From the NCBI GenBank assembly GCA_045106555.1, contig JBGCET010000002.1:135752-199751 (forward strand): a stretch of 64,000 nt of DNA, given 5' to 3'. The position numbers were made by a program, and so were the translations under genes. Shown here piece after piece: positions 31,508 to 49,722 of the stretch. Numbering within the stretch: position 1 is the first letter of the stretch; every line of letters begins with the position of its first letter. This DNA comes from Lysobacterales bacterium. GTDB taxonomy: Bacteria > Pseudomonadota > Gammaproteobacteria > Xanthomonadales > SZUA-38. The notes below the pieces were generated by a model, which was not told the DNA's origin, ran no database searches, and worked only from the letters and a program-made list of their open reading frames with translations.

Positions 31508-31547
31508 GAATTGTTGTCCTTATGGCTGGCTTGACTTGCACATATGC

Positions 31548-31562
31548 GTGTACATTGTACAC
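31548..31562. promoter_or_regulatory. Perfect palindrome GTGTACA-T-TGTACAC in a divergent promoter region (candidate operator)
   Basis: Read directly from the sequence. It lies between the amine-oxidase start (31507, minus strand) and ATG 31587 (plus strand). TTGACT occurs at 31531-31536. Confidence 0.3.
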
Positions 31563-31586
31563 ATACGAGCAAATTCAGAGGGTAAA

Positions 31587-32852: not shown

Positions 32853-32859
32853 CGGTGCA

Positions 32860-33156
32860 CTAGTCGGGCATTTCTACCAGTTGGACTTCAACCTCAGCCA
32901 AGCCTTCGCGCAGTTTTTTCACCTCAGCGTATTCTTCTGAGTCCCAAAAAGCGCGGGCTGTGGCTCGGTCTGGCCACTTGGAAATAGCGATGGAGGTATA
33001 CCCCTCGAGGGTGCCCTCCAGCAGTTCTGCTCCCGGGGCCAGCACCAGGTATTGACCGCCAAATTTCTTCACCAGCGCCGCTGCAGCGCTGCCATAGCCG
33101 GTGCGAAACTTGTCTCGGTCATGGATTTTTGCCGCAATAATCATGTAGGCCGCCAT
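32860..33156 (-). CDS. DUF1330 family protein
   Basis: 98 aa. MAAYMIIAAKIHDRDKF...YGSAAAALVKKFGGQYLV...AISKWPDRATARAFWDSEEY matches the DUF1330 pattern. Confidence 0.75.
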   Translation of the reverse strand: MAAYMIIAAKIHDRDKFRTGYGSAAAALVKKFGGQYLVLAPGAELLEGTLEGYTSIAISKWPDRATARAFWDSEEYAEVKKLREGLAEVEVQLVEMPD

Positions 33157-33175
33157 AGCGTGTAATGTCCTTTGT

Positions 33176-33622
33176 TTAAGGCTGTGTTTCTACCTGTAGG
33201 TAATCGATGATAGCGCTTCGATCTGCCGCTTTCGCGACGCCGGCAAACGCCATGATGGTGCCAGGTACTTTGCCGGTTGGGCTTGTGATGAACGCATCAA
33301 TTTGTTCGCGACTCCATACGATGTCTGCGGCTTTCAACGCGTCAGAATAGCCGAAGCCCTCAGCGCTTGCTGCGCTGCGTCCGAAAAGGCCGCTGAGGTT
33401 TGGGCCCACTCGATGGCCCTGATCTTTCTTCAGGGCATGGCAGGCTTGGCACTGTAAGAACAGAATTTTTCCTCGGCGCAAAGTGGCCTCACTGACCGCA
33501 GGCGAAGTCGACGCTGCGGGATCTGGCGAGGTTTGGCCGTTGCTGCAGGCTGGTATGGCAATTAACGCCAGCAAAACAGTGGGTAGCGAAATGACGTTTG
33601 GAATCTGCATGGAAAGGTTCAC
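33176..33622 (-). CDS. Class I c-type cytochrome (c2-like), probable lipoprotein
   Basis: Haem motif CQACH, GPNLSGLFGR, distal Met region GTIMAFAG, and N-terminal LIAIPAC. Confidence 0.85.
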   Translation of the reverse strand: MNLSMQIPNVISLPTVLLALIAIPACSNGQTSPDPAASTSPAVSEATLRRGKILFLQCQACHALKKDQGHRVGPNLSGLFGRSAASAEGFGYSDALKAADIVWSREQIDAFITSPTGKVPGTIMAFAGVAKAADRSAIIDYLQVETQP

Positions 33623-33763
33623 CTTGGGGTGCTCGTCGGCCTCTGTTGGGCCATTGTTGGATTAAATCGTATCACATATGAGTCTGTATCATACTCAGAT
33701 GTAAATGCACGACGCCTGCTTTGTGTATACTGTCTGCCCCTAAAATACCTCAGGTAGATTCAG

Positions 33764-34477
33764 ATGCGAAGTTCCGACGACTTTACCCGCGGTGGTGTTT
33801 TCCTGGCTTTGGCGGTGATTTTTACGATCGTGCTGACCGCTTGCTCCAGCAATCCCAATCGCACCCCCTTGAGTAGCGCTGATCATCTTGCCCGGGTACT
33901 TGGCTGGTGGCCGGGTGACTACAACAACGATAGGCAGTTGGCAGTTTTAACAAAGGCAGGCAAACCCATTTGGCGTGAAGACGGTTCTGGCAAGCCGGGT
34001 CACATAGAGGTGACGTCCCACTATCGCGAGGTCAATTTGCCCCAATTCGGATCTCACGTTTTGTATGTGGAAGAAACTAAGCATGGCGATCCCAAGCTGA
34101 TGTTTCGCCAGCGCATATACACCTTCGACATTGATCCCCAAAGCGACGACATTACGGTCAAGCTATGGAACTTCAAAGACAAGCAGGGGTATGTTGGGGC
34201 CTATCAGGATCTGTCGATGATTGCCGACCTTCAACCGAGCGAAATGTCGCCTTTACCGGATCAATGCGATCTGACGATTCGCCAGCAGGCGGATCGTTAT
34301 CACATGACAATGCCGGCCAAGGCCTGTGCATTTGGCGGCCGATATTTTGACTATCAGGTGTTACTGGGCCCGGATACGTTCTGGTTCAGGGACCGCATTG
34401 TGGACCTGGAAACCGACGAAGTCAGGGAATCTGCTGGCGGCTTTACCTATCATGAGCTAGACCAAATCAATGGGTAG
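33764..34477 (+). CDS. CpcT/CpeT-family (bilin-lyase-like beta-barrel) lipoprotein
   Basis: Lipobox VLTAC. LGWWPGDYNNDRQ and HIEVTSHYREV...FGSHVLYVEE...MFRQRIYTF resemble the CpcT/CpeT signature. Confidence 0.6.
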   Translation: MRSSDDFTRGGVFLALAVIFTIVLTACSSNPNRTPLSSADHLARVLGWWPGDYNNDRQLAVLTKAGKPIWREDGSGKPGHIEVTSHYREVNLPQFGSHVLYVEETKHGDPKLMFRQRIYTFDIDPQSDDITVKLWNFKDKQGYVGAYQDLSMIADLQPSEMSPLPDQCDLTIRQQADRYHMTMPAKACAFGGRYFDYQVLLGPDTFWFRDRIVDLETDEVRESAGGFTYHELDQING

Positions 34478-35390
34478 TTCGTTGCCAGTTGCTGCAGCCT
34501 TCGCACTGTTTTTGCCAACGTTCGTGGCTAACGCACAAACACCGGGTACAACGTTCCAGGACTGCCAGGACTGCCCGGAAATGACGGTGATCCCCAGTGG
34601 CAAAGCCTGGCTTGGGGTGGAACCTTTCGAGGCTAATACCAAACGCGGGGATGTTGCGTTGCGCGAAGTCACCATTAGTTATGGATTGGCTGTGGGAGCC
34701 AAAGAGATTACTCGCGCGCAATATCGCACCTTCATGGAAGCGTCTGATCATCAGATGGCTACCGCGGGCTGCAATACCTGGGGCGTCAATCGAATATTAG
34801 GGTATGTGAAATCTCACACCTGGAATGCGCCGGGTTTTCCGCAAAACGAACAGCACCCGGTGGTATGCGTCAGTCATGTGGATGCAACCGCCTACGTGGA
34901 ATGGCTCAGCGAAAAAACCGGCAAATCCTATCGGCTGCTGTCCTCTACTGAATATGAGTATGCAGCCCGGGCGGGTACCCGTGGTCCCTGGTTCTGGGGC
35001 TTAAGTGCCGCCCAGGCCTGCGAATACGCCAATGTCGGTGACGACAATTTTCGACGAAGCTTCGACTACGCCCCCGTGTTTAACTGCGACGATGGCTACC
35101 TGCATACGGCTCCGGTGGGGTCGTACAAGCCCAACGCCTGGGGCTTATACGACATGCTGGGCAACGCATGGGAGTGGACCCAGGACTGCCTGCATCGTGA
35201 CACCACTAACATTCCTCTGGATGGGTCGTCGTGGCTGGAAGAAGACGGTGGTGAGTGTGATCGACGTATTCCCCGCGGCGGTGGCTGGGTCTCCGGAACC
35301 GACTGGATCCGTGCGGGCGCTCAGGCGGGCGACCTGGCCCCCTATCACAGCCAGCTGCTGGGCTTCAGAGTCGGGTTGACGCTAGACTAG
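34470..35390 (+). CDS. Formylglycine-generating-enzyme (FGE/SUMF1/PvdO) family protein, secreted
   Basis: Signal peptide. YRLLSSTEYEYAARAG, WGLYDMLGNAWEW, RGGGWVSG and LLGFRVG. Overlaps the upstream CpcT-like gene by 8 nt. Confidence 0.85.
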   Translation: MGSSLPVAAAFALFLPTFVANAQTPGTTFQDCQDCPEMTVIPSGKAWLGVEPFEANTKRGDVALREVTISYGLAVGAKEITRAQYRTFMEASDHQMATAGCNTWGVNRILGYVKSHTWNAPGFPQNEQHPVVCVSHVDATAYVEWLSEKTGKSYRLLSSTEYEYAARAGTRGPWFWGLSAAQACEYANVGDDNFRRSFDYAPVFNCDDGYLHTAPVGSYKPNAWGLYDMLGNAWEWTQDCLHRDTTNIPLDGSSWLEEDGGECDRRIPRGGGWVSGTDWIRAGAQAGDLAPYHSQLLGFRVGLTLD

Positions 35391-35440
35391 CCCGTCGAGA
35401 GATAGGTTTGAAAGGTGCTATCGCCCGATGTGCCACAAAC

Positions 35441-36487
35441 TTATAGCTCACTGAGAACCTCCCGAAACTCATATCCTTCGCGGTGACAGTGGGCGCCAAT
35501 GCCCTGGGTGTTAAAACCAAAGCGGCGTGAGTCCACGTCATGCACGGTGTACACCAACGAGCGGGGTTCGCCGGTTTTACGAAAGGAAAAGTACATGAAA
35601 TCAGGGCGGTCAGAATAAAAGGGGTATTGTTTGTCTCTCAGCAGACCGGTAAACGATTGACTGTCGGACTGACGGGTCAGTTCAAAGGTTCCGCCCTGAC
35701 TCAGCAGCCGAATGTTTGCTTGAGTCTGGGTAATGGCGCCCTGGTCATCACGGAAGCTCACCTCGCAAAAAAAGACCTTGGCGCGTCTCATTTGAGTAAA
35801 CGCCCCCGGCTTGTTGCCGGCAGCATGTTCGCCGCTGGAAACATAATAAGACCCGTCTTCACGCCAATAGGTGTCTTCAGACAGCACTAGGTTATGGACA
35901 GAATACCGGCGTTTTTCTCCCTCACCGAAGAAACACGCCCTATCGTCCATGGCGCCATGAAACTGTCCACCCACTCGACGCCACTGCACCGAGCAGTTGG
36001 CCTCCGGAAGAATGTCGCTCATGAATTGGACGTCGTCGACCGACAACGATTCCCATTTTTTGGGGTCTTCATGAGCACCCAGCCACGCGTCTTTATCCCT
36101 GAAAAACTGCTGGTGCATCAGGATATGAGGATTGCCAGGCTCGGTAGAGAATGTCACTAGCCTTTGGCGAAATACTTTCGCTGGGTTGTTGTCGCGATAT
36201 TCCTCAACGTAATAAACGTGGTCACCAAACTCCGCTGCGTGAACGCGGTGATGAATGGTGTGGACCCGGATCTGGCGATCGGACTCCGCTATGGAGACCC
36301 GTCGGTCGGCTTCAAACCAGCGCTGCTCTTCGTTATCAAATTCGCCCTCAAACCATTCGCTGAGCACCTTAATATCTCGCGCCATCGGGTCAGCGGCGTC
36401 ATCGGCAAACACCGCCTGGCCGGCAGAGAGAAGGCCGGCACCCGCTGCCAGTTGCAAAGCCATTAGCAGTCCCCGTTTCATCATCAT
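35441..36487 (-). CDS. CpcT/CpeT-like domain protein, secreted, with an extra C-terminal domain
   Basis: Signal peptide. LSEWFEGEFDNEEQ and IRVHTIHHRV...FGDHVYYVEEYRD...VFRQRLVTF. Lies 19 nt downstream of the second amine oxidase. Confidence 0.6.
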   Translation of the reverse strand: MMMKRGLLMALQLAAGAGLLSAGQAVFADDAADPMARDIKVLSEWFEGEFDNEEQRWFEADRRVSIAESDRQIRVHTIHHRVHAAEFGDHVYYVEEYRDNNPAKVFRQRLVTFSTEPGNPHILMHQQFFRDKDAWLGAHEDPKKWESLSVDDVQFMSDILPEANCSVQWRRVGGQFHGAMDDRACFFGEGEKRRYSVHNLVLSEDTYWREDGSYYVSSGEHAAGNKPGAFTQMRRAKVFFCEVSFRDDQGAITQTQANIRLLSQGGTFELTRQSDSQSFTGLLRDKQYPFYSDRPDFMYFSFRKTGEPRSLVYTVHDVDSRRFGFNTQGIGAHCHREGYEFREVLSEL

Positions 36488-36506
36488 CTCTCCTGGTTTG
36501 CTGTTT

Positions 36507-37964
36507 TCAAACGGCGCTCAATACACTGATCGCCGCCCGTTCGCCGGATTCAAAAGCGCCTTCCATGCCACGCTCCAGCAATGCGGTGTGCTCCCCGCAG
36601 AATTCGATATTGCCGTGATTATCACGCATGTGTGCGGCATATTGGGTGACCTGTCCTGGCCGCCAGAACACCCAGTCACCGGCGCCATGGACATCCCGAT
36701 GGCAGGACTGCACCAATACCGGCTCCAGAGCGCCCTTCAACGCCGGGCGCACTGCTTCGAGTTCGCGAGTGGTGTAGTCCATTACCTGTTGGTCGGTCAT
36801 GAAATTGTATTTGTACGCCTCATCGCCATTGATGAAGGCAATGGCAGAGGACGGCGCGCCCTTTTCTCCTCGGCCCAGCACCGCAAAACGTTCAAAACTG
36901 CCGTCTGCCCAGATGTTTTTGGGCAAGCCGTCGTCTTCCCAGAAAGGCCGTTTCAACAGATAGTGCACCTGGATGGAAATCCCGTAGTCGATTTCGTCGA
37001 TTGCCGCTGCCATCCGCTCGGGAAGCCGCGGAAAAAACTTCACGTCCTTCATTACCGGATAGGGCATGGAACAAACCACTTTTTTTGATCGGTAGCGTGT
37101 GCCATCGCCGCAATGGGTGATGACCTCAGATCCTCGGTCTTCGAATGCGTAAACCGTCTTGCCAGTAAGTACGCCGTTTTCCAGGCTTTCAGCCATCGCC
37201 GCAGGCATGCGTGAATTGCCGCCTTCAACCTGCAGTACGGGTGGCCGATCCTTCGCGGCGTCTGAGACTCGGGAGTTGAATTCTCCAACCGCGTATCGAC
37301 GAAGTTCATGCAGTGCCGACGTGTTGTCCAGGTGATCGGTGTGCACGATGGTGTTCATCAGGCGAATCGTTTCGTCGTTATAACCCAGGTAACGCCGTAG
37401 GTATTCGCTCTGGGGAATATCGTATTTGGCAAACTCCGGTTTGATCCAGGCGTCCAGGGGCTGGCCCGACAAGGGGTTGTCTCGATGGGACAGCTCGAAC
37501 AACATTCGGTTGGGCATCATTTCCCGGTCTTTGCCGGACAGCGGATTGAGTTCGTGGGTCGGCCAGGCTTCGGCGGAAATGTCCTGCCCACGGATGCGGT
37601 AATACCAACCAGACCTCGTGGCCAGCTGGTTGGGTTCAATCAGTTTCAGCTTGTGGCGTTTAGCGGCTTGAATCATCCGCGCATAGTTGCCGCCAATCAG
37701 TTCTCCCGCGGCTTCTGGCTTACCGGGAATATCCATCAATGTGTAAACCCGGCCGCCGATGCGTTGGCGACCTTCCAGGGTTTGCACATTCATCCCGTTA
37801 TCTTCCAGCAAGGTGGCGGCCTGGAGGCCCGAAAGGCCTGCGCCCACCACGATGACATCGTGGACCGGGGTTGCTTTGCCGAATACCGGCAGAACCGGGG
37901 TCAACGCGGCTGCCACGCTCCCCTGCAGGAGTTGTCGGCGTTTGCTGGAAATCGGTGAATTCAT
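36507..37964 (-). CDS. Tat-exported flavin-containing amine oxidase (second paralogue)
   Basis: SKRRQLLQGSVAAAL twin-arginine signal, DVIVVGAGLSGLQAATLL...GGRV, and IEFCGEHTA...GMEGAFESGERAA. Confidence 0.85.
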   Translation of the reverse strand: MNSPISSKRRQLLQGSVAAALTPVLPVFGKATPVHDVIVVGAGLSGLQAATLLEDNGMNVQTLEGRQRIGGRVYTLMDIPGKPEAAGELIGGNYARMIQAAKRHKLKLIEPNQLATRSGWYYRIRGQDISAEAWPTHELNPLSGKDREMMPNRMLFELSHRDNPLSGQPLDAWIKPEFAKYDIPQSEYLRRYLGYNDETIRLMNTIVHTDHLDNTSALHELRRYAVGEFNSRVSDAAKDRPPVLQVEGGNSRMPAAMAESLENGVLTGKTVYAFEDRGSEVITHCGDGTRYRSKKVVCSMPYPVMKDVKFFPRLPERMAAAIDEIDYGISIQVHYLLKRPFWEDDGLPKNIWADGSFERFAVLGRGEKGAPSSAIAFINGDEAYKYNFMTDQQVMDYTTRELEAVRPALKGALEPVLVQSCHRDVHGAGDWVFWRPGQVTQYAAHMRDNHGNIEFCGEHTALLERGMEGAFESGERAAISVLSAV

Positions 37965-38151
37965 GACTACTTACCCTAAGTCGATATTTACATGCGTGAA
38001 CACAATATACCGCTACGTGTAGACAATTCCCACAGTTGGCATTGTCTGTTGACGACATGTCGGCTTTTTTGTCTGATTTTGAGATTGCCGGCGTGTATCC
38101 AATGTGATCAAGCTGGAGTCCAATCAGGGACTGTTCGGATGGGTGGCGGCA

Positions 38152-38180
38152 TTGACGTTGGGGGTTGAGGCTGCTTTAAT
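38152..38180 (+). promoter_or_regulatory. Candidate sigma70 promoter of the tetR-ABC operon
   Basis: TTGACG (38152-38157), a 17-nt spacer, then TTTAAT (38175-38180). The -10 element overlaps the operator palindrome. Confidence 0.4.
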
Positions 38181-38210
38181 GACCATGGTCATTTAAAAAC
38201 CATGGTCATT
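38178..38210. promoter_or_regulatory. Tandem operator: perfect 16-bp palindrome AATGACCATGGTCATT, then a second copy AAAAACCATGGTCATT one nt later
   Basis: Read directly from the sequence (38178-38193 and 38195-38210). It sits immediately upstream of the tetR Shine-Dalgarno sequence and start codon, which is typical TetR autoregulatory geometry. Confidence 0.55.
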
Positions 38211-38221
38211 ACGAGGTGGAG

Positions 38222-38800
38222 ATGAACTGGCGTCAGCAACAAAAAGTAGAGCTGAAACAGGCCCTGTATGCGTGCGCGGTCAGACTGTTCGAAGCCCAAG
38301 GTTTTGAGTCTACGACCGTAGCTCAAATTACCACTGAACTGGGTGTGGCCAAGGGGACATTCTTCAACCACTTCCCCAGCAAAGAACATGTCATTGAGCA
38401 GTGGTACGACGCGATTACGACGGACTGCCTGGCGGCGGCGAAAACCGCTTCTTTTGCCAGCGCTGAGCTGGCAATAGCGAGCCTGTTTTCGGAGATGTCT
38501 GGGCGAGCCACGGCGTCTCCCGAACTGCTTATGGCGAAAGCTGGCAACGTGATAAACCCCCTTTTGGTTGGCGCTGAAATGCGTCAGGTAAAGCAGGTGG
38601 CGGACTATGTTCGAACCCAATGCCAGGCCGGTGTTGAGCGTGGTGAACTCAGGGCGGATACCGACATCCACTTTGTCGCTGATCTTCTGGTGGCCTTGCT
38701 GACAGGGACCTCCCGCGCTTGGGTAAGCTCTCAACCCCGTTTTGATTTCCCCGACCTCATCCGCAGGAGAGTTCAGTTCGTATTTGAGGCGGCCCGGTGA
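38222..38800 (+). CDS. TetR-family transcriptional regulator
   Basis: HTH TTVAQITTELGVAKGTFFNHFPSKE. ATG 38222 is preceded by GAGGTGGAG. GTG 38216 is the alternative start. Confidence 0.85.
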   Translation: MNWRQQQKVELKQALYACAVRLFEAQGFESTTVAQITTELGVAKGTFFNHFPSKEHVIEQWYDAITTDCLAAAKTASFASAELAIASLFSEMSGRATASPELLMAKAGNVINPLLVGAEMRQVKQVADYVRTQCQAGVERGELRADTDIHFVADLLVALLTGTSRAWVSSQPRFDFPDLIRRRVQFVFEAAR

Positions 38801-39687
38801 GCGTATTGTCGATCTGCCATTTAAGTCACACCTATGCCGGCGGCGTGCAGGCCTTGAACGATCTCAGTATGGAGCTCGGGCCCGGCATGTTCGGATTACT
38901 GGGACCCAACGGCGCTGGCAAGTCCTCATTGATGCGAATTATTGCAACCTTGCAAACCCCCAGTCAGGGCGACGTGCATTTTGGTGATATTGACGTCCTC
39001 AAACAGCCTCAGCGACTCAGGCGGGTGTTGGGCTATCTCCCCCAGGATTTTGGCGTCTATCCGCGAGGCTCTGCGATGGAGATGTTAAATCACATTGCCG
39101 TGTTGAAAGGGATAAGCTCGCGCAAACAGCGCCGGCAGCTCGTTGAGCACCTGCTGCATTTGACCAATCTATTTGACGTACGAAAAAAGCGACTGGCGGG
39201 GTTTTCCGGTGGCATGCGCCAACGGTTTGGCATTGCCCAGGCGTTGATTGGCAATCCCAGACTGTTGATTGTTGACGAACCCACTGCCGGGCTGGATCCC
39301 CAGGAGCGCCATCGGTTTCATAACTTGTTGGCGGAAGTGGCTCAGGATGTTGTGGTGGTGCTGTCAACCCACATCGTGGAAGACGTGGACGACCTGTGCC
39401 CGCGGATGGGTGTGCTCAGGGCCGGTCAAATCGTGGCTCAGGGTAAGCCTGCGGACCTGCGCAATGCCCTGGTCGGCACCCTGTGGGAAAAAGCGATTGA
39501 ACCCAAGGACCTTCAGGCAGTGGAGGCGCGTCACGAGGTGATTTCCCACCATCTATCCGCCGGTAAGCGGGTGGTCCGGGTTCGGGCGACGCAATATCCT
39601 GGCGACGACTTCCAACGCAGCGATCCGACGCTTGAGGACGTGTACTTTTGCGCCATAGCCCAAGCCACGGCAGTGGCAACGGCTTAG
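38797..39687 (+). CDS. ABC transporter ATP-binding protein
   Basis: Walker A GPNGAGKSS, signature FSGGMRQR, Walker B LLIVDEPTAGLD. The GTG start overlaps the tetR stop (GTGA). Confidence 0.9.
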   Translation: MSVLSICHLSHTYAGGVQALNDLSMELGPGMFGLLGPNGAGKSSLMRIIATLQTPSQGDVHFGDIDVLKQPQRLRRVLGYLPQDFGVYPRGSAMEMLNHIAVLKGISSRKQRRQLVEHLLHLTNLFDVRKKRLAGFSGGMRQRFGIAQALIGNPRLLIVDEPTAGLDPQERHRFHNLLAEVAQDVVVVLSTHIVEDVDDLCPRMGVLRAGQIVAQGKPADLRNALVGTLWEKAIEPKDLQAVEARHEVISHHLSAGKRVVRVRATQYPGDDFQRSDPTLEDVYFCAIAQATAVATA

Positions 39688-39690
39688 ACA

Positions 39691-42600
39691 ATGACGGGAC
39701 GCATTGCCTGGCTTGAGTGGCACTATCAGGCGCGATCCGTGGCTGCGTTGCTGGCACTTGCCGTTTCGTTGGGCTTGGGGTTTTTGCTGACCGCCAATGC
39801 GGGAGAGTTTCAGTCCTTTGCCCCCGGCGGAATGGTGCTGGCCAACTCTCCCCACGCACTTGTCGAAAATTTGATCAAAATCGGATTGTTGGCCGTGTTT
39901 GCCATGCCGGCCATCATTGGCGGTGCAGTGCTACGGGACTTGGAATCAGGTATGTCTCCGTTGATCTACAGCACACCAGTGAGCACTTGGCAGTTCTTGC
40001 TCGGACGCTTTGCCGGCTCTTTTGGTGTTCTGGCGGTGGTGGCAGCAGGCGCTCCAGTTGGTTTTCTGCTTGGCACCTTTTGGCCCTGGGCCGACCCATC
40101 ATTGCTGGGCCCCACCCGGCTTCACCACTATGGCTTTGGCTACATTGTCATCATGTTGCCGACATTGTTGTTCACCGCGGCGTTGGTTTTCGCCGTAGCG
40201 GTGATTGCTCGTCGAATGATCTACGTTTACCTGATGGTGATGGCCCTGCTCGCTTTATCGTTGATCGGCGGTGAAGCCAATCTGATTCATCCCGTGGTTG
40301 ATCCATTTTTGTACGAAGTGTTTGAGCGTCAGACCCGCTACTTGAGTGCCGCCGAGCGCAATCAACAGCTGGTTAAAATCGACACGTTGATGCTGCTTAG
40401 CCGAGCGCTATGGGGAACTCTGGCGCTGGCGGCCTTGGCGCTGGCTTGGCGGCGCTTTTCATTTTCCCCAGTGATGAGGGGAGAAAAACCTCCGGCTGAG
40501 ATGAAGGGCGAGTCCCATCAGTTCAACTCCTTGTCGGCGGACTGGAAAATCTCACCACTATGGGAGAGTGCTACCTCTTGGCGTCAACTCAGGGTCTTGA
40601 TGGTGTGGGAAATTCGACAAGTCTTAATGAGTCGGCCCTTTCTCATTCTCCTCGCGATCAGCTTCACTCTGTTGGTGTTGAGTTTAGTGAGTCGCGAGGT
40701 CCACTATGGTGTGCAGGCCCTGCCGGTAACCCGGCTGATGATTGGGTCTTTGTCGTCGCTAATCCTGGCGCTGATGGTTGTCCTGGCTTTTTACAGTTCG
40801 GAGATTATCTGGCGGGAGCGTCGCTGTGGATTCAATGGCGTGTTGGACGCAATGCCGGTCCCCAGTGTCGTTGTGATCAGCAGCAAGATCTCAGCGTTGT
40901 TGGTGGTAATGGCAATGATCGTTGGATTGGGCGTCGTGATCGCGGTTGGGGTTCAGATTGGCAGCGGCTACTATCATTTTGAGCCACTGCTTTACCTTGA
41001 GCGGGGCCTGTTTTTCAACACGCTTCCTTACCTTTGTTTGGCCGTGCTGACCTGTTTTTTTCAGGTGCTTGGCAGCCATCGCTTTGTCGGGCTGCTGATG
41101 TTTGCTGTTTTTATGGCGGCGCTTGTGGGTTCTCGAGATCTATTCGGTGTAGAACATCCATTGCTGAGTTTCGGCCTGCCAGCGGTGCCGGCGCCCATGT
41201 CGGACATGAGCGGCGCACGAGAGTTTATGGCCTTGGGATATTGGGTACGAGCCTATTGGTTTTGCCTGGCGGGGCTGTTTTTGATGGCCACCGTTGCACT
41301 TTGGCAGCGAGGTATCCTGCAGCCACTGCGGCTCAGGTTGCGCAGGCTTACGCGTCAAACCAGCGTGCTGCCGATGGTTTCGGCAGCGTTGCTGGCCCTG
41401 GGAGCCGTGGGCGTCGGCGCTGTCATCTATCACAACACCAATATTGTCAATCGTTATGTCACCAATGCGGATGCTGAGGTAATGCAGGTGAACTATGAGC
41501 GCAACTACCAGAGGTTCTCGAGCTTACCGATGCCGTCCATCACTGCGGTGACTATGGCAGTGGACCTTTACCCCTTGCAACGTCGAGTAACGGTGGCGGG
41601 GGAGCACCTCTTGCGCAACCGCCACGAACAGCCTCTGACGCGCATTGATGTGGTTTTTCCGCCCGACCTTGACCTGGTCTCCGTCACCTTGGACGTTGCC
41701 GCAGCCCAATCTCAAGCCAGTGAACTGGCTACGTATGTCACGTTCGAACTTGATCAGCCGATGCTGCCTGAACAGCAGATCACCTTGCAATTCGAGGCCC
41801 AGCTCCAGCACGTAGGGTTCGCTCATGATGCTCCCGACACCGCGCTGGTTCGTAACGGGATTTTTATCGGCAACGAACGGTTTAGCCCCCACATCGGGTA
41901 TAACCCAGATTACGTCTTAGACGATGTTCGAGACCGTCAACATTATGGATTGGCGCCGTTGGCGAGGCGGCCGCTGTTAGAGGACACCCGACAACACAAC
42001 GTCAATCCAACCCGGGCTGACAGCACCTTTATTGACTTTGAGAGCACCGTTTCAACCATAGCCGGTCAGACCGCGATTACCTCGGGCAACCTCATTGAGC
42101 GCTGGGAAGAGGGCGAGCGGGCCTATTTTCACTACAAAATGAGTGGGCCTATTCGAAACCTGTACGCCTATTCTTCAGCGCACTATGACGTTGTGCGTGA
42201 TCAGGTCAACGGCTGGGATCTGGAAGTCTTTCATCACCCTGGACATGATAAGAATGTAGGACGAATGCTGGACGCAGCGAAAGACAGCCTTGCGTATTTC
42301 AGTGAAGTCTTTAGCCCGTATCAGTACCAGAAGCTCACGATTGCCGAATTCCCGGCCTATCGGGCATTTGCCCAATCCTTTCCTGACACCATCTTTTTTT
42401 CCGAGGATCTGGGGTTCCTGGATCAGATCGGCCCTCAAGATCTGGACATGCCGTACTACATTACGGCCCACGAAGTGGCGCATCAATGGTGGGGTCATCA
42501 GTTGACCGCGGCGAATACTCAGGGAGATGGGTTTCTGCACGAAACGTTGGCGCAATATTCCGCCATGTTGGTGATGCGCAACCGATATGGGCGCGACACG

Positions 42601-43263
42601 GTCCGTCGATTTCTCAAATTTGAGCTGGATCGCTATTTGTCGGCTCGAGCCAACGATCCGCAAGGTGAGCTGCCGCTATATCGCGTGGAAAAACAAAAAT
42701 ACATCCACTATCGCAAGGGCTCTATCGTGATGTATGCGTTGGCGACGTATTTGGGTGAGGGGGTGGTCAATCGTTCGTTAGCGCAGCTGCTGCGGCTGCG
42801 CGCATTCAGCGCGTCACCCTACGCCATCTCCACGGATTTTCTGAAAATACTCAAAGCCCAGGCCAAACCAGAACAGCATGGGCTGATTGAGGACATGCTG
42901 GAAAACATCACGCTATTTGATCTTCAGCTGCATCGCGCCGATGTAAGAGCTGCAGAACACGGCGGCTTCCGGGTCACTGCGCACGTCGATGTGGCGAAGT
43001 TTTACGCCAACGGCGAGGGCGAGGAAACCGAGGCGCCGTTGGATATGGCCGTGGATATCGGCCTGTTCAGACGCAGTCCCGACGCGGCAGATTTTACCGA
43101 GGACGACCTGATTGCGCTTAAGCCTGTTGACCTGACCAGCGGCTCGTCGACCGTTGAAATTGTTGTCAGTGAGCAGCCTGCGGTTGTTGTTATCGACCCG
43201 TACTACAAGCTGATTGATCGTCAAATGGGGGACAACGAGGTGGCGGTAACGACATCAAACTGA
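39691..43263 (+). CDS. Fusion protein: polytopic ABC-2-type permease (N-terminal ~560 aa) plus M1-family zinc metallopeptidase domain (C-terminal ~600 aa)
   Basis: Uninterrupted 1190-aa ORF starting 3 nt after the ATPase stop. It has many hydrophobic segments up to about residue 560, then HEVAHQWWGH...FLHETLAQY (a gluzincin HExxH...E site). Confidence 0.85.
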   Translation: MTGRIAWLEWHYQARSVAALLALAVSLGLGFLLTANAGEFQSFAPGGMVLANSPHALVENLIKIGLLAVFAMPAIIGGAVLRDLESGMSPLIYSTPVSTWQFLLGRFAGSFGVLAVVAAGAPVGFLLGTFWPWADPSLLGPTRLHHYGFGYIVIMLPTLLFTAALVFAVAVIARRMIYVYLMVMALLALSLIGGEANLIHPVVDPFLYEVFERQTRYLSAAERNQQLVKIDTLMLLSRALWGTLALAALALAWRRFSFSPVMRGEKPPAEMKGESHQFNSLSADWKISPLWESATSWRQLRVLMVWEIRQVLMSRPFLILLAISFTLLVLSLVSREVHYGVQALPVTRLMIGSLSSLILALMVVLAFYSSEIIWRERRCGFNGVLDAMPVPSVVVISSKISALLVVMAMIVGLGVVIAVGVQIGSGYYHFEPLLYLERGLFFNTLPYLCLAVLTCFFQVLGSHRFVGLLMFAVFMAALVGSRDLFGVEHPLLSFGLPAVPAPMSDMSGAREFMALGYWVRAYWFCLAGLFLMATVALWQRGILQPLRLRLRRLTRQTSVLPMVSAALLALGAVGVGAVIYHNTNIVNRYVTNADAEVMQVNYERNYQRFSSLPMPSITAVTMAVDLYPLQRRVTVAGEHLLRNRHEQPLTRIDVVFPPDLDLVSVTLDVAAAQSQASELATYVTFELDQPMLPEQQITLQFEAQLQHVGFAHDAPDTALVRNGIFIGNERFSPHIGYNPDYVLDDVRDRQHYGLAPLARRPLLEDTRQHNVNPTRADSTFIDFESTVSTIAGQTAITSGNLIERWEEGERAYFHYKMSGPIRNLYAYSSAHYDVVRDQVNGWDLEVFHHPGHDKNVGRMLDAAKDSLAYFSEVFSPYQYQKLTIAEFPAYRAFAQSFPDTIFFSEDLGFLDQIGPQDLDMPYYITAHEVAHQWWGHQLTAANTQGDGFLHETLAQYSAMLVMRNRYGRDTVRRFLKFELDRYLSARANDPQGELPLYRVEKQKYIHYRKGSIVMYALATYLGEGVVNRSLAQLLRLRAFSASPYAISTDFLKILKAQAKPEQHGLIEDMLENITLFDLQLHRADVRAAEHGGFRVTAHVDVAKFYANGEGEETEAPLDMAVDIGLFRRSPDAADFTEDDLIALKPVDLTSGSSTVEIVVSEQPAVVVIDPYYKLIDRQMGDNEVAVTTSN

Positions 43264-43296: not shown

Positions 43297-44688
43297 TCAG
43301 GGCCTTTCAAAACCATCTTGGAATAGCGCAGGTATTTCAACGTCACCGCCAGAGATAACCAGCGGGCCGTTGTCTGCGGGGTCCAGCCAGGGTTGCAGGC
43401 GCTCAGCGTCTGTATTGCCACTGCGCCAGGCAGCGGCAAAACGGCCGTAGCAGTCAAACGAAATATTGCTGCAGGATGCCGCACCGCCAGACAGAAAGCC
43501 GATAACCCCCTTGTTATCGGGATGAAAAAGGGCCGACCCGGAAGAGCCGGGCTCGGTGGTGCCGTCTTCCCAGTTGTCGACAGTCCAGTGAGTGTTGGTG
43601 TTATCCGCAATAATGCAGTTGCTGGCGTAAGACAGGGCATCGGTATTGAAGCTGATCGCCTTTTCGTCCACTCGGGGATGATGAATGCCTACGCTTCCTT
43701 GAGGGATGGTGTCAGATCGGTCCCACCCAGCCCAGTGGACGTTGAAGGATGTGGGGGGTGTAGAGCTTAATTCGAGTAACGCCATGTCGGTTTGTCGGTC
43801 ACTGGCGCGAAACACGGCCCCCGACACAGACTCCATTCTGGAGCCTCCCGATAGCTGGCCGCAGGTGGGTGATTCATAATTCCACAAAGTGACCACGGAT
43901 GCGGCGTTGGACGGATTTATTCCACAATGAAAAGCAGTTAAGAAATAGGGCGTGAAACTCCCTTCAGCGTCCATCACCATCGTTCCCGTACACGTATCGA
44001 TGCCGCTTCGGGTGTAAGCTGCGACTGAACGGATTTCGTCTCGCCAAAGATCACCTTCGGGGCATACTACGTCGTTGTTGCATGCACCCTGCTTGCTCAG
44101 TCCAGGGCCGCCAAAAACGTTGAATACGTCGCGAAAGCCTCGGCTTACTCGAATAAGCTCCAGTTGCAACGTTGGGGTGGCACCGGTAGGAATAAAAAGT
44201 TCTACGGTGACGGTATCCCCGGGCATTGGTGGTGACCAAAACTGGCCATGGTCTGCGTTGTCATCGTCGGTGTAAGGGCCATCAAAATAGTTGGGCATTG
44301 CTTTGGTGTTGCTAATGAAATACAGCGTTGCCCCCACGGGCAACTGAAATTGTTGAAAGCCAAAATTCAAATCGGTGGCGCCCTCAGCAGCAAATCCCAT
44401 TCGCCAGAGCTGGCCACCGTCAACGACAGACCATTGTCCATGGGTGGTGGGAGAGATGTTGAGGTCCGTTGGGCGCGCAAACCGCACCGCCACGCCGCGC
44501 TTGGCATCCCGGTCCGCTGCCGCTTTTTCCAGCGCCGGGTCTAAACCCGGTAACCGGTACGGCTGGGCGCTGGGCAGCGTTAGACCAAAGCTTTTGGGTG
44601 TCTGGCCTTCTCGAGCCCCTGTAGTCGCAGGCAGAGCCAGAAGCAGGGCGAATAAAAAAAACCATGGAGTCGGCTGGAAACGGACCAC
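43297..44688 (-). CDS. Lysyl endopeptidase-like secreted S1 serine protease (Achromobacter protease I family) with pro-region
   Basis: CNNDVVCPEGD, FLTAFHCG, WAGWDR, IHHP, TEPGSSGSALF and WLDPA parallel Achromobacter protease I. GTG 44688 gives the signal peptide MVRFQPTPWFFLFALLLALPATTGA. The ORF is open to TTG 44778. Confidence 0.85.
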   Translation of the reverse strand: MVRFQPTPWFFLFALLLALPATTGAREGQTPKSFGLTLPSAQPYRLPGLDPALEKAAADRDAKRGVAVRFARPTDLNISPTTHGQWSVVDGGQLWRMGFAAEGATDLNFGFQQFQLPVGATLYFISNTKAMPNYFDGPYTDDDNADHGQFWSPPMPGDTVTVELFIPTGATPTLQLELIRVSRGFRDVFNVFGGPGLSKQGACNNDVVCPEGDLWRDEIRSVAAYTRSGIDTCTGTMVMDAEGSFTPYFLTAFHCGINPSNAASVVTLWNYESPTCGQLSGGSRMESVSGAVFRASDRQTDMALLELSSTPPTSFNVHWAGWDRSDTIPQGSVGIHHPRVDEKAISFNTDALSYASNCIIADNTNTHWTVDNWEDGTTEPGSSGSALFHPDNKGVIGFLSGGAASCSNISFDCYGRFAAAWRSGNTDAERLQPWLDPADNGPLVISGGDVEIPALFQDGFERP

Positions 44689-44790
44689 AAGAAGACCTGT
44701 AAAAAACCACGAGGAGACGATGGTAGCCCACCCGGTACGCCAAAAACCGGACCGAGTTGGCAGTCGGTCAGGCCTCAAAAGCGTTATCGA

Positions 44791-47532
44791 TCAGGCCGCG
44801 ACGGGCTTAAAGGTCTTCAGCGCCCCGCTGGTTGTTTCCACGCAGGCGGGCAGTAATTCCAGCATTTGCCTGACCTGCTCAACCTTGCTTTCTGCGGCCG
44901 CAACCTCAATGGTTTCACATAGGTTTCGGACGCTGACAGCGCCCAGGCTAGCGCTGGTAGATTTGAGTTCGTGAGCGTGTGCGGCCACCTGTTCCAAGTT
45001 CTGAGCCCTGAGCGCCTGGCGGATTTTCTTAATCCCCTCTGGCGCATCGGCGATATACGACTGCACCAGTTCATCAAGGCCTGTTCCCATCAGCTGGCAT
45101 AATTTCTGAAGTGTCGCCTCGTCCAGGTCTTTACCGGCCTCCTGTTTCAAGGACGCTGACGGCGTCACAGTTTTTGAACTGCGATGGGTTCCCTGTAGCG
45201 CATCTAGCGGGTCGGTAGCGCTCTCGCTGCCATCCTCGGCGTGGGCCATCAAGCGCCGCAGCGTTTCAGCAATAAGTTGTCGATCCAAAGGCTTGGACAG
45301 ATAGGCGTCCATACCTGCACCCAAGCACTTCTCAACATCTCCCGACATGGCGTTTGCTGTCATGGCAATGATGGGAAGGCGAGCAAGGTTATTGCGTTCT
45401 TCAATTTCACGCCATTGGCGGGTCGCCGTGTAACCATCCATGATCGGCATCATGCAGTCCATTAATGCGGCATCAAAATGCCCCTTCTCCATCGCTGCCA
45501 GCGCTTCCCGACCGTTGGTTGCGACCTCAAATTCAAGTCCAAGAGACTTCATCAGTGTGGTCGCCACGTTGAGGTTGATGTGATTGTCTTCGACTAAGAG
45601 CACCCGAGCTTTGATGGTTTGGATTTCCACATATTCGTTGGCGTCTACCGCACGCTGAGTCTGCTCTGCGGTCGCGTCAGCGGTTCGTTCCACCAGTTCG
45701 CTGATGGCCTCGGCCAATTGTTCAGTAGAGCAGCTGGCCGATACAGCGCTGATGTTGTCCAACGTTTTCAACGACTCGGGCACCTTGCCGCCCGCGTTAA
45801 GAATCAGGCAGGGTCGGCCGATTTTTGGATGATTGGATAATTTCTTTGCCAGTACCAGCCCCTGGGGTCCAGTGGAGGTAGCGTCGATGGCCAGCAGGTC
45901 AATATCGTTATAGCCACCTTCATCATGGCCTCGTTTGACTTTCCCCACGGCATCCTGAGGGCTGCTTGCCAGATCAACATTGCAGCCGCTGTTCTGGGCA
46001 AAGCGAGCGGCTCTGTTTTGAAAGACTTCGTCGTTGGTCACCATCAACATCCGCACGCCAGCGAGTTTTCGGGCCTCCGGTGCAATATCGCCAACGGCTT
46101 TTTTTAGCGGAATCTCAAACCAGAATTCAGAACCTTTGTTCTTCTTCGATACAACGCCAATATCACCGCCCATCAGCTCAACCATTTGCTTGCAGATGAC
46201 CAGCCCCATTCCGCTGCCGCCAAAGTTGCGGGTCACAGATGCATCAGCCTGCGTAAATGGCTGAAACAATTTTTCTATCGTGTCCTCATCGATGCCAACG
46301 CCAGTGTCCTTAATGCTGAATCGGAGCCGGTATTCCGCCACACTTTCACTGCGGGTGGTGACGTTGATCTGAACCATGCCGTCTTCAGTGAACTTCACCG
46401 CGTTGCTCACCAGGTTGGTGAGTATCTGGCGAAGCCGTACCGGGTCACCACGAACTGCGGCTCGAACGCCGGTGTCAATATGGCTTTTTAGCGCCACGTT
46501 TTTTCTGGCCGCAGATTGCCCCAGGAGTTTGGTAACAGAGTCCACTAATTCGTTGAGGTTAAACCCAACCGTCTCCAATTCCAGCTTGCCAGCCTGCATT
46601 TTTGAATAATCCAGCATGCTGTCAATGATCGTCAGGAGATGTCGGGATGAGCTCAAGATCGTACTCATATGAGCGCGTTGCTCTTCATTCAGTTCCGACC
46701 CCCGCATCAAATCCAGCAGCGGAAGTATGCCGTTAAGCGGCGTACGAATTTCATGGCTGACTGTAGCGAGAAATTCGTCTTTCGCTAAGCCTGCCTGTTG
46801 TGCCTGGCGACTTAACTCGCCCATCTCTTCTTTGATGGCGTTGCGTTCCCGGGCCATGCGTTGACGGGCGCCCTCAGCCTGGGCCGCCTGATCTTGGGCT
46901 TTGCCCAGTGCAACCGCCTGTTCTTCCACCTGGCGTCGAAGCCGGGAGCGGTCGTCAAACAGCCCGCCGGGTCGACTGGTGCAAAACATGACGACCAGGG
47001 CAGTCAGCAGTGCCGTCACGGACGCCGGCAGGGTCCACAGGTCGGTCACAGCAAGGGTCACAGTTAAGGGCAAAACGGCAGTCAGAGTAAACAGACATTG
47101 GGCCAAAAAAGAACAGGAAAAAAGGACCACGCCGGCGGCCATCGCTGCCAGCGTCAGGCTGGTGATCAGATAGAGAGACCGGGGGCTGTCGGGCTCGATG
47201 AACAGCAGAGCACAGGCTCCCCAGCCGGCACCGACCGCTGCGGCATACAGCAGGAAGTAGCGGCGCCAGACGGTGACGTCGGGCAATTGATCGTCGTTCT
47301 TTGCCGAAACCCACCGGACCGTCAAGACCGTTATTGTCAGCAGGCTAAAATAGCCCGCAACGACCCAACCAAACTGGGCGTTTCCGGTCATGCCCATGGT
47401 GATGGCCAATGCCAGACCGGGAATCAAAATAATCAGCTGATAAAGCGAAAGGCTCTGACTCCAGCGCACGGCGTCAAGCGCGCGTCGATCAGCCATGTCC
47501 AGCTGATCGGTTTCAGTTGCGGTCGTGTTCAA
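44791..47532 (-). CDS. Hybrid sensor histidine kinase (6 TM, HisKA, HATPase, degenerate REC, REC, Hpt)
   Basis: H-box [11 protein letters not shown], an ATPase domain, receiver [11 protein letters not shown] / [12 protein letters not shown] / LSKP, and C-terminal Hpt [14 protein letters not shown]. Confidence 0.9.
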
Positions 47533-47658: not shown

Positions 47659-49632
47659 TCAAATGGGGTTTGTCGACGGCTCGCTTGCCTCAGACTCATA
47701 GATAATCTGGCTGTTTCGCTTAACCGTTAGCGGATGATAGCCGGGTTTGGCGGCTTCAAATATCCGCTGGGCCATTGCCTGTTGGTTATTGTCTACGAGG
47801 GCCTGATAGAGCGGTCTGAGAAATTTATTGCGGCCGATGCTCATCAGGAAATTCTCCAGTCGCCCCATGGCCGGCTGATAGTCGTTATTGATGGCGATCA
47901 TCAGCCAGCTGAAGGCTATTTCATTATTAGTAGAGGCGGTCAGTTCGAATGCGCGGTCGAGCTCGTCCAGCTGTTTTGCCGTTAACGATTGCGGCAGGTT
48001 GTCGAGAAAGTACTTCCATTCATGAGCGGTCCAATCTGTGGTGTTGATATCGGCCGCGTTGACGGTGCCTGCCTGCCAGTCAGTCAGCAGCGGATCAATA
48101 TTGGTAAAGGCGTTTGAGGTCGGCGTCGGTGCACCCTCTGGAATTCCGGGCTCGTAAATCCACTGAGCAATACGTTCACTATTGAGCTGTTCGCTGTGGG
48201 TCGTGAGAAGAGTTTTCTCCAGATGCTCTACAAAACTCTCGGTGGTCAGGCTACGAAATTGAAAGGTGTCGAAATAGCTGCGAAGGAAGGCGTCAAAATC
48301 TTCCCGCCCGACATTGTTTTCCAGTTCGTACAGGAACAACGAGCCCTTCTCGTAGGGCACGCTGGAAAACGCGTCATCCGGATCACGGTCGCGCATGTCC
48401 AGAGCCAGGATCTGGTCCGCGGTGTCCATGTCGGCCATTTCAGCCGTTAAGTCGGCCAAACCCAGCGCCATCTCCATCGCGTAACGATCATCGCCGTAGA
48501 CAAACTGCATGATTCGGTTGGTCAGATAGGTGGTGAAACCTTCGTTGAGCCACAGATCGCGCCATGTGGCATTGGTCACAAGATTGCCAGACCAGGAATG
48601 GGCCAGCTCGTGAGCAATCAGTGACACAAGAGACTTATCGCCAGCAATAACGGTGGGTGTAATGAAACTGAGACGGGGATTTTCCATCCCGCCAAAGGGA
48701 AAGCTCGGCGGTAGAATCAGCAGATCGTAACGGTCCCACTGATAGGGGCCATAGCGCGACTCGGTGGCCTCCAGCATGGTTTCCGTGTCGGCGAACTCCG
48801 CCGCGGCGGCGGCGAGAATTTCTTTTTCCGCGTAGACCCCTGTGCGTTCCCCCATGGCCTGAAATTCCAAGTCTCCCACTGCCAGTGCCAGCAGGTAAGA
48901 GGGGATGGCTTGGGGCATTTCGAAGTGATACACACCGTTGGGTGAGGCCGCGGGTGAATTGTTGGCGCTCATCACGGCCCTGAGAGCCGTCGGAACCCTG
49001 ATCGTTGCATTGTAGGTAAGCCGCACTGCCGGGGTGTCTTGCAGCGGTACAAAACTCCGCGCATGGATGGCCTGAGCTTGGGTGAACAAAAATGGTTGCT
49101 GTTTGCCGGCGGTCTGGCGTGGCGCAAGCCACTGAAGGCCTGACGCATCAGGTGCCGTCCGATAGCGAATTTCCACTACATTTGCTGCAGGCGGCAGCGA
49201 GATTGCCAGCGCAGTCCCGAGTACCGGGTGAGGGTCAGCCAATGAAAACTCCACCCTGGCCCGTTTTTCGGCGGAGCCAGCCAGTACTTCCATGACCGTT
49301 AAATCCCGGGTGTCCAGAATCAACGCCGGATTACCGCCGCCCTGGCGTTCAATGGTCAGCGTCGCTGAACCCTCCAGAACTTGGCGTTTAAAATCCACCG
49401 TAAGATCCAGGTCCACATTGCGGGTCAGGTACGCGTCAACATTGGCGAACGAGTGATAGTCGACCCCTGGCGTGGGTCCAGTATCCGGGGCGGTCGCTGG
49501 ATCCGGCATGCCCGCCGGGCTAGTTTTATCGGTTGTGGTGTTGGCTTCTGGAACGCCCGAGTCTGGGCTGTTGCAACCGCCAGCAATCAACGCAAGAAGT
49601 ATCAGTGGGAGGGAATAATTTCGGTGGCTCAC
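47659..49632 (-). CDS. M1-family zinc aminopeptidase lipoprotein (leukotriene-A4-hydrolase/cold-active aminopeptidase-like)
   Basis: FGGMENPRL exopeptidase motif and HELAHSWSGN-x-WLNEG zinc site. GTG 49632 is preceded by AAGGAG and gives the lipobox LIAGGC. The ORF is open to 49689. Confidence 0.85.
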   Translation of the reverse strand: MSHRNYSLPLILLALIAGGCNSPDSGVPEANTTTDKTSPAGMPDPATAPDTGPTPGVDYHSFANVDAYLTRNVDLDLTVDFKRQVLEGSATLTIERQGGGNPALILDTRDLTVMEVLAGSAEKRARVEFSLADPHPVLGTALAISLPPAANVVEIRYRTAPDASGLQWLAPRQTAGKQQPFLFTQAQAIHARSFVPLQDTPAVRLTYNATIRVPTALRAVMSANNSPAASPNGVYHFEMPQAIPSYLLALAVGDLEFQAMGERTGVYAEKEILAAAAAEFADTETMLEATESRYGPYQWDRYDLLILPPSFPFGGMENPRLSFITPTVIAGDKSLVSLIAHELAHSWSGNLVTNATWRDLWLNEGFTTYLTNRIMQFVYGDDRYAMEMALGLADLTAEMADMDTADQILALDMRDRDPDDAFSSVPYEKGSLFLYELENNVGREDFDAFLRSYFDTFQFRSLTTESFVEHLEKTLLTTHSEQLNSERIAQWIYEPGIPEGAPTPTSNAFTNIDPLLTDWQAGTVNAADINTTDWTAHEWKYFLDNLPQSLTAKQLDELDRAFELTASTNNEIAFSWLMIAINNDYQPAMGRLENFLMSIGRNKFLRPLYQALVDNNQQAMAQRIFEAAKPGYHPLTVKRNSQIIYESEASEPSTNPI

Positions 49633-49722
49633 GGACAACTCCTTGCGGTGAAATTCATGCATGAGAAGGATAACGACGCTGGCGATCAATGTCAGTAGAA
49701 ACGTCCGGTGTCTTATCGGTCG

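Follow-up and report, generated by a model that had tools for sequence, protein, structure and literature searches.

Can an ATP-binding cassette (ABC) transporter carry, in one polypeptide, both the path by which a substrate is expelled and the enzyme that destroys it? The question is raised by three genes that lie in series on the + strand of a 64,000-nt stretch of DNA from a Lysobacterales bacterium (the window; all positions are counted along its whole length): tetR, an ABC ATPase gene and a 1190-codon gene whose product fuses an ABC-2-like permease to an M1-type zinc peptidase. The periplasm has no ATP, so energy-dependent proteolysis there is unexpected, and a rigid, conserved fusion of an ABC motor with a peptidase would be a direct route to it. 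We found that the fusion is kept in one frame and paired with its ATPase gene across several bacterial phyla, and that its peptidase is predicted to face the periplasm. Transport-coupled proteolysis is a reasonable hypothesis for such a protein. We tentatively favour, at somewhat short of an even chance, a form of it in which the exporter would expel a hydrophobic or amphipathic peptide-like substrate that is handed to the fused peptidase and cleaved.

The permease and the peptidase are encoded as one protein

The open-reading-frame listing and its translations place tetR at 38222-38800 (ATG start at 38222, with an alternative GTG start at 38216), the ATPase gene at 38797-39687 (GTG start) and the fusion gene at 39691-43263, all on the + strand. 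The GTG start of the ATPase gene overlaps the TGA stop of tetR (GGCCCGGTGAGCG), and 3 nt separate the TAG of the ATPase gene from the ATG of the fusion gene (GGCTTAGACAATG). An earlier reading of this DNA, made from the sequence only, had described the three genes as one coupled unit and the third as a single uninterrupted 1190-codon frame; the listing bears out both statements, and the second is further upheld by an identical database protein and by full-length homologues.

The tetR product, a 192-aa repressor of the TetR family, matches TetR_N in Pfam (52 bits). The ATPase, a 296-aa DrrA/GldA/NodI-like nucleotide-binding domain (NBD), matches ABC_tran (101 bits) and has intact motifs (Walker A GPNGAGKS, signature FSGG, Walker B LLIVDE, H-loop TH); the DrrA, GldA and NodI models of NCBIfam score highest for it, none of them reaching its equivalog cut-off. 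The sequence-only reading had proposed profile searches for the ABC-2 and M1 halves of the 1190-aa fusion protein, and both were matched: ABC2_membrane_3 (aa 65-190) and ABC2_membrane_4 (aa 317-471) under their gathering scores, and Peptidase_M1 (aa 860-1056) above threshold at 44.6 bits against a cut-off of 27.7. No equivalog for the fusion protein was found in NCBIfam.

A 100% identical 1190-aa protein, from a Lysobacterales metagenome-assembled genome (P0001), is present at NCBI. Full-length homologues, about 1190-1280 aa in size and covering 95-100% of the query, number more than 120. Among species-representative genomes, a relative is encoded in at least 542 of the 600 pattern matches listed, and in the best 80 of these loci both halves lie in one frame without exception (80/80). 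These 80 span alpha-, beta- and gammaproteobacteria, Bacteroidota, Acidobacteriota, Gemmatimonadota and Myxococcota; the host groups include Xanthomonadales/Lysobacterales, Sphingomonadales and Caulobacterales, with Stenotrophomonas maltophilia, Sphingomonas, Brevundimonas, Massilia, Janthinobacterium and Chryseobacterium among the hosts. A search of 1.84 billion cluster representatives with the membrane half alone (aa 1-590) returned 704 clusters (50% identity) at E<=1e-30; with the threshold relaxed to E<=1e-10 the number rose to 1777. Of the 150 top-ranked representatives, about 100 had the fused length of 1170-1240 aa.

The identical database protein, the 80 fused loci and the roughly 100 fused representatives rule out a frameshift or an assembly artefact as the origin of the fusion. 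Three apparent split forms of about 600 aa (P0148, P0133 and P0258) turned out, on inspection of the contig DNA, to be fragments at contig ends. In a fourth case (P0180, JGI 3300078620), a 602-aa homologue of the membrane half stops inside a 2524-nt contig and the next gene overlaps it by 4 nt; this could be a genuine separation of the permease and peptidase genes, or the result of a frameshift. With this one possible exception the proposed comparison of fused with split versions came out on the side of fusion, and split forms appear to be rare at best.

The architecture is not new. A 1200-aa Myxococcus xanthus protein, Q1D520, has been placed in TCDB family 3.A.1.145 as functionally uncharacterised, according to the passages on it in Getsin et al. 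(2013; PMC3924187), and like our protein it is described there with a length of about 1200 aa, 13 transmembrane segments, an N-terminal ABC-2 part and a C-terminal M1 part. Relatives of Q1D520 in Myxococcales/Anaeromyxobacter (L072 and L060) align with our protein over residues 1-1186 and 31-1187 at 33-35% identity, so homology to Q1D520 itself is very likely from sequence, and the protein is a member of the 3.A.1.145 kind. NCBI names the family, the identical protein included, 'ABC transporter permease/M1 family aminopeptidase', and UniRef uses the same name. The expectation that such fusions are annotated automatically yet functionally uncharacterised was right: the name exists, and our literature search found the 2013 TCDB assignment and no functional, structural or genetic study of the family. 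The architecture itself had already been described by Getsin et al. As a discovery the fusion therefore adds little, having been in TCDB since 2013 and under an automatic name at NCBI. The present analysis contributes the prediction that the peptidase lies in the periplasm, the finding that it has lost hallmarks of an aminopeptidase, the reduction of the system to a minimal unit of two genes and the recognition that its TetR switch is lineage-specific; the passages of Getsin et al. on 3.A.1.145 do not mention the placement, the loss of the GXMEN motif or the missing domain IV.

Topology and fold of the membrane half

The membrane domain had been read from sequence as having roughly twice the usual six helices. 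Two six-helix ABC-2 halves are indeed present, but the count is 13, not 12: hydropathy gave 13 hydrophobic segments, and 13 transmembrane (TM) helices are also seen in an AlphaFold2 (AF2) model of the full-length protein built with 25 homologues (mean predicted local distance difference test, pLDDT, 85.6; predicted template-modelling score, pTM, 0.83). A separate model of residues 1-595 reached a pLDDT of 79.4. Thirteen segments were also counted in the M. xanthus homologue, according to the passages on it in PMC3924187.

The first transmembrane domain (TMD1, aa 1-255, 39691-40455, +; AF2, hydropathy and ABC2_membrane_3) comprises an amphipathic connecting helix (2-14) and TM1-6 (17-255). A cytoplasmic linker between the halves (aa 256-292, 40456-40566, +) is disordered at 262-288 (pLDDT 35-43) and is the least conserved segment of the protein (mean conservation 0.35). 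The second domain (TMD2, aa 293-537, 40567-41301, +; AF2 and conservation) repeats the arrangement with an amphipathic connecting helix (293-312) and TM7-12 (315-537), and holds a conserved periplasmic loop, PL6 (aa 486-510), with a P.SDM.G motif. A short helix follows TM12 in the AF2 model and leads to TM13 (aa 559-585, 41365-41445, +; hydropathy, AF2 and conservation), which is preceded by RLRLRRLTRQ and carries a conserved exit motif, G..IY.NTN.VN (576-587).

The helix-parity check suggested with the sequence-only reading gave an odd number, and lysine and arginine are more frequent in the predicted inside loops (17 in 127 residues) than in the outside loops (7 in 112) when the N-terminus is placed inside. 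Because of the odd helix count and this positive-inside bias, the peptidase is predicted to face the periplasm. Cysteine is absent from the 600-residue peptidase part, which is weakly consistent with a periplasmic placement.

In type V exporters each TMD has six TM helices that are not domain-swapped; a connecting helix stands at the N-terminus, a short coupling helix follows TM2, and short external helices separate TM5 from TM6 (PMC11406275). The AF2 model contains the corresponding elements, with connecting helices at 2-14 and 293-312 and further helices at 89-93 and 382-387 and at 208-215 and 220-225; the modelled membrane half thus has the type V (ABC-2) exporter fold, and the neighbouring ATPase, with its intact motifs and its adjacency in 74 of 80 loci, is the cognate ATPase that such an exporter needs. 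In a Foldseek comparison with solved structures the best matches of the membrane half were 8K1M, 8K1N, 8K1O and 8K1P, entitled 'mycobacterial efflux pump' (TM-score 0.49-0.56 for 8K1O). The first three are Rv1217c-Rv1218c of Mycobacterium tuberculosis, an exporter of type V with an ATPase homodimer. Its two TMDs differ from each other but are joined in a single polypeptide, TM1 and TM7 are each preceded by a connecting helix, and the structure has a hydrophobic cavity at the level of the outer leaflet and a periplasmic gate (PMC11406275). Our protein shares with Rv1217c the two 6-TM halves in one chain, the separate ATPase and the connecting helices; Rv1217c, whose substrate is rifampicin or other hydrophobic drugs, differs in having no 13th helix and no peptidase, and the two are only 16% identical.

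Each TMD half also matches NosY, PmtCD and ABCG25/ABCG1. PmtCD of Staphylococcus aureus (PDB 6XJH), with the same type V fold, exports amphipathic phenol-soluble modulin peptides and confers immunity on the producer, but its permease is a separate 6-TM homodimer, no peptidase is attached, the host is Gram-positive, and the substrate genes are known. NosDFY (PDB 7O0Y, 7ZNQ) resembles the fusion in that an ABC-2 permease has a periplasmic partner docked on top; that partner, NosD, is a separate beta-helix protein for copper-site assembly, with neither peptidase nor fusion. Type VII permeases are of the 4-TM FtsX type with a periplasmic domain between TM1 and TM2. Such features of the mechanotransmitters FtsEX, MacB and LolCDE were not found in our protein, which has 6+6+1 helices, a C-terminal peptidase and no FtsX or MacB_PCD match in Pfam.

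The peptidase half

The peptidase half consists of three parts, all encoded on the + strand: an M1 N-terminal beta-sandwich domain (aa 612-850, 41524-42240; AF2 secondary structure and Foldseek), a thermolysin-like catalytic domain (aa 851-1071, 42241-42903; Pfam, invariant columns and alignments with ERAP2 and IRAP) and a C-terminal beta-sandwich (aa 1072-1190, 42904-43260; AF2) equivalent to M1 domain III. Foldseek aligned it with IRAP, ERAP1/2, PepN and PfA-M1 over about 610-640 columns (E ~5e-18), and a sequence search of the PDB returned only distant M1 aminopeptidases (E >= 5.8e-6).

Both the HExxH...E zinc site and the catalytic tyrosine of the M1 family are present in the sequence. The zinc motif is HEVAH (927-931, 42469-42483, +), the third ligand is E951 (42541-42543, +), and the tyrosine motif Y1007-x-K-G (42709-42720, +) aligns with Y-N/F-K-G of ERAP2 and IRAP. 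H927, E928, H931, E951, Y1007, K1009 and G1010 are invariant in 25 homologues that are 29-76% identical to the query. The domain is an M1-fold gluzincin, as the sequence-only reading had it, and because its zinc ligands, general base and transition-state tyrosine are invariant it should be catalytic. The spacer from HEVAH to E951 is 19 residues long, a one-residue insertion relative to ERAP2, whereas canonical M1 enzymes have 18.

Less of the canonical aminopeptidase is left. In M1 aminopeptidases the glutamate of the GXMEN motif binds the free N-terminus of the substrate, and a lid, domain IV, encloses the active-site cleft. A HMMER alignment to ERAP2 and IRAP, which read GAMEN here, found no GXMEN exopeptidase motif in the fused peptidase: GAMEN aligns with F893-A-Q-S-F897 (42367-42381, +), the N-terminus-binding glutamate is replaced by serine, and FAQSF is the consensus of the 25 homologues. 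The helical domain IV (ERAP1_C, Leuk-A4-hydro_C) is likewise absent, since in the AF2 model the chain stops after a 115-residue beta-sandwich, and Pfam gave no match to it. Compared with E. coli PepN, ERAP1/2, IRAP and LTA4H, the fused domain thus keeps the N-terminal beta-sandwich, the thermolysin-like domain, the zinc site and the tyrosine, and it differs from them in the GXMEN motif, the spacer and domain IV, as well as in being tethered to the membrane by an ABC permease at the predicted periplasmic face. As it has neither an N-terminus-clamping glutamate nor a lid domain IV, it is probably not a classical, strict aminopeptidase, judging from alignment and model, and the canonical-aminopeptidase reading of the domain falls with these two elements.

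A canonical M1 gene of the LTA4H type lies 4.4 kb downstream of the fusion gene (47659-49689, −). It served as an internal control, matching Peptidase_M1_N, Peptidase_M1 (166.5 bits, against 44.6 bits for the fused domain) and Leuk-A4-hydro_C and carrying GGMEN; it aligns with the fused M1 domain over 159 residues at only 25% identity.

Pairing with the ATPase and contact between the halves

An ATPase gene whose product is 54-64% identical to ours lies directly upstream of the fusion gene in 74 of the 80 loci. Five of the other six loci begin at or just upstream of the fusion gene; the sixth is L022. A Pfam scan of 53 upstream and 60 downstream genes found no recurrent neighbour family, and because nothing recurs beyond the ATPase we take the functional unit to be two genes, ATPase and fusion. 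Large open reading frames downstream of the system in L039, L060 and L062 were considered as partners and are unrelated to the fusion. The window contains no biosynthetic, precursor or ribosomally synthesised and post-translationally modified peptide (RiPP) genes, and the anti-phage defence models of PADLOC gave generic ATPase matches only.

Ranked behind the active-site segments, the best-conserved 12-residue windows of the fusion protein include 576-587 at the TM13 exit, 502-513 in PL6 and 367-378 at the cytoplasmic end of TM8. No low-confidence linker separates TM13 from the peptidase in the AF2 model. Loop 501-510 of PL6 has a pLDDT of 82 in the full-length model and of 44 in the model without the peptidase, and blocks 331-350 follow a similar pattern. 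PL6 is modelled with confidence only in the presence of the M1 domain, and the models suggest that PL6 and the 331-350 loops contact the peptidase.

The TetR gene and its putative operator

A putative sigma-70 promoter upstream of tetR was placed by eye (−35 TTGACG 38152-38157, 17-nt spacer, −10 TTTAAT 38175-38180, +); a consensus promoter scan found no + strand site there. A repeat analysis points to a putative TetR operator at 38175-38211, with no strand assigned, where two tandem 17-nt units, TTTAATGACCATGGTCA and TTTAAAAACCATGGTCA (38175-38208), overlie a perfect 13-nt inverted repeat, TAATGACCATGGT and ACCATGGTCATTA (38177-38189 and 38199-38211). The first 17-nt unit includes the putative −10 element. 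From this position and the dyad symmetry TetR would be expected to bind here, and the operon is probably TetR-repressed and autoregulated; with such an autoregulated switch it would be inducible in this genome and its closest relatives.

Elsewhere the arrangement is scarce. Among 53 loci with a scannable upstream gene, TetR lies directly upstream of the ATPase in one, L001, the closest relative of our system (57% identity). Iterated searches of all 83 loci found a TetR gene beside the system in three (L001, L083 and L011), and an orthologue of the window TetR (55% identity) only in L001 and L083; the TetR of L011 (Ideonella) is unrelated, convergent and downstream of the system. In L083 (GCA_039030415.1, 3272-5685) the TetR orthologue directly precedes a divergent permease of the 13-TM type (28% identity) with no ATPase between them, and the contig stops inside the permease gene. 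To judge from these neighbourhoods, TetR control is lineage-specific and not a feature of the family.

Further upstream of the tetR promoter, the intergenic DNA contains a 12-nt direct repeat present three times (CGTGnAnACAAT-like, at 37995, 38016 and 38092, within 37995-38117), an imperfect 13-nt inverted repeat (38021-38047) and, beyond it, a hairpin with a T-run behind it (38048-38064, +).

How transport and proteolysis might be coupled

In the mechanism that we favour, two copies of the ATPase would dock on the single-chain, 12-helix pseudo-dimeric type V permease. TM13 would take the chain across the membrane and hold the zinc peptidase at the periplasmic face, directly above the periplasmic gate. 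Driven by ATP, the ABC module would take a peptide or peptide-like compound of hydrophobic or amphipathic character out of the inner membrane or the cytoplasm; the substrate would pass through the gate straight to the open cleft of the fused peptidase and be cut there ('extrude and cut'). In its favour stand the predicted topology, the exporter fold with an intact ATPase, the invariant catalytic residues, the missing aminopeptidase hallmarks, the near-constant fusion with its conserved TM13 exit and PL6, and the regular presence of the ATPase gene alongside. Several points weigh against this mechanism. The topology is a prediction, the placement of the zinc site above the gate is presumed, and the kind of substrate, its hand-over and the link with ATP are deductions. 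The Foldseek matches of the membrane half have probabilities of 0.97-1.00, yet all their E-values are weak (5e-3 or worse), and NosY, a force transmitter and not a transporter, matches about as well as true exporters do. Because no substrate or precursor gene is conserved beside the system, the substrate must be generic or encoded elsewhere. TetR control, moreover, is lineage-specific.

The similarity to NosY, which ranks with the best structural matches for either TMD half, also lends itself to an explanation without transport, in which the ATP cycle would move the permease and the rigid TM13 junction and so open, close or reposition the peptidase, giving ATP-gated periplasmic proteolysis by analogy with NosDFY, FtsEX-EnvC and MacB-type systems. 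FtsEX and NosDFY operate by mechanotransmission. The TM13 exit and PL6 are among the most conserved segments of our protein, no flexible linker lies between membrane and peptidase, and the pTM of 0.83 implies a fixed arrangement of the domains, all of which would suit such a device. The remaining top matches are nevertheless true exporters (Rv1217c, PmtCD and the ABCG proteins), the type VII fold typical of FtsEX and MacB is not present, and domain IV, whose movement gates canonical M1 enzymes, is absent from the model, so that we regard this explanation as possible but doubtful. The same rigid and conserved junction, not a variable tether, speaks against mere co-localisation, in which the peptidase would be an anchored periplasmic trimming or nutritional enzyme, the ABC module would move something else, and fusion would provide stoichiometry or proximity. 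That the family is found mainly in proteolytic environmental heterotrophs (Bacteroidota, Xanthomonadales/Lysobacterales, Sphingomonadales, Caulobacterales, Acidobacteriota and Myxococcota), and that no substrate genes are linked to it among the 53 upstream and 60 downstream neighbours, would fit co-localisation, as would the suggestion, in the passages of Getsin et al. on the family (PMC3924187), that an amino acid or an amino-acid derivative is exported. But the fusion is nearly always kept, the loss of GXMEN argues against simple aminopeptidase trimming, and this genome already has a canonical GGMEN aminopeptidase 4.4 kb away; we consider co-localisation alone unlikely.

Inducible resistance to a peptide or lipopeptide antibiotic, in which the pump would clear the drug from the membrane, the peptidase would inactivate it and TetR would sense it, is a special case of extrusion and cutting, and the sequence-only reading had considered it favoured by the TetR control. 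The translational coupling of tetR, the operator over the putative −10 element and the presence of the same TetR subfamily beside related permeases in L001 and L083 agree with it; immunity or resistance conferred by a type V exporter has precedents in PmtCD and Rv1217c, and the lost N-terminus-binding glutamate might suit substrates with blocked N-termini. The argument from TetR is weakened, because the switch is lineage-specific (upstream of the ATPase in 1/53 loci, beside the system in 3/83), and the system is a stable, widespread pair of chromosomal genes that lacks the surroundings usual for resistance genes, such as mobile elements or biosynthetic clusters. Resistance is therefore quite unlikely in our estimate. 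A last alternative is leader trimming, in which the peptidase would cut the leader off a ribosomal peptide that is exported (RiPP, bacteriocin or signal peptide), by analogy with the C39 peptidase-containing ABC transporters (PCATs), which likewise join a peptidase and an ABC exporter in one polypeptide; M1-family leader peptidases are also known for class III lanthipeptides. PCATs have an N-terminal cytoplasmic C39 cysteine peptidase, a type IV fold, a fused NBD and adjacent genes for double-glycine precursors. None of this was found here: there is no C39 match in Pfam, the NBD is encoded by its own gene, the fold is of type V and the peptidase would lie on the trans side, and neither the window nor the 53 upstream and 60 downstream neighbours hold conserved precursor, modification or immunity genes. 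The separation of this system from the PCATs, already made in the sequence-only reading, is thereby confirmed, and we hold leader trimming to be very improbable.

Extrusion and cutting may also be cast in a bolder form, an ATP-powered protease at the periplasmic face, in which the type V engine would extract membrane peptides such as antimicrobial lipopeptides, peptaibols or leftover signal peptides into the fused peptidase, or would gate the peptidase mechanically; we think this conceivable, though rather doubtful. If it were true, this would be the first case in which proteolysis outside the cytoplasm draws on the energy of an ABC ATPase, and it would be shared by hundreds of Gram-negative species; the family would then make up a new functional class of ABC system in which export or extraction is coupled to destruction. 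The question can be put to experiment, since the large family includes culturable and tractable hosts (Stenotrophomonas maltophilia, Sphingomonas, Brevundimonas, Chryseobacterium and Myxococcus).

Other features of the window

The operon ends at 43263, because the next gene downstream is convergent. This gene (43297-44778, −) encodes a 492-aa trypsin-like serine peptidase, lies 33 nt beyond the end of the fusion gene and is followed by a gene for a hybrid histidine kinase (44791-47532, −; HisKA, HATPase_c, Response_reg and Hpt). The pair is not kept beside the system in other genomes.

Upstream of the operon, the region 30011-37964 contains two genes of the CpeT/CpcT family (DUF1001; 33764-34477, +, and 35441-36487, −) and, near them, two flavin amine oxidase genes (30011-31507, −, and 36507-37964, −) and a gene with an FGE-sulfatase domain (34470-35390, +); the pairing of CpeT/CpcT with amine oxidase is thus duplicated, in a non-cyanobacterial genome. 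Two further open reading frames had no Pfam match at E<=1e-6. One, of 524 aa (31278-32852, +), partly coincides with the amine oxidase gene of the other strand and could be spurious; the other, of 365 aa (55868-56965, −), lies directly upstream of a gene on the same strand for a resistance-nodulation-division (RND) pump of the AcrB type.

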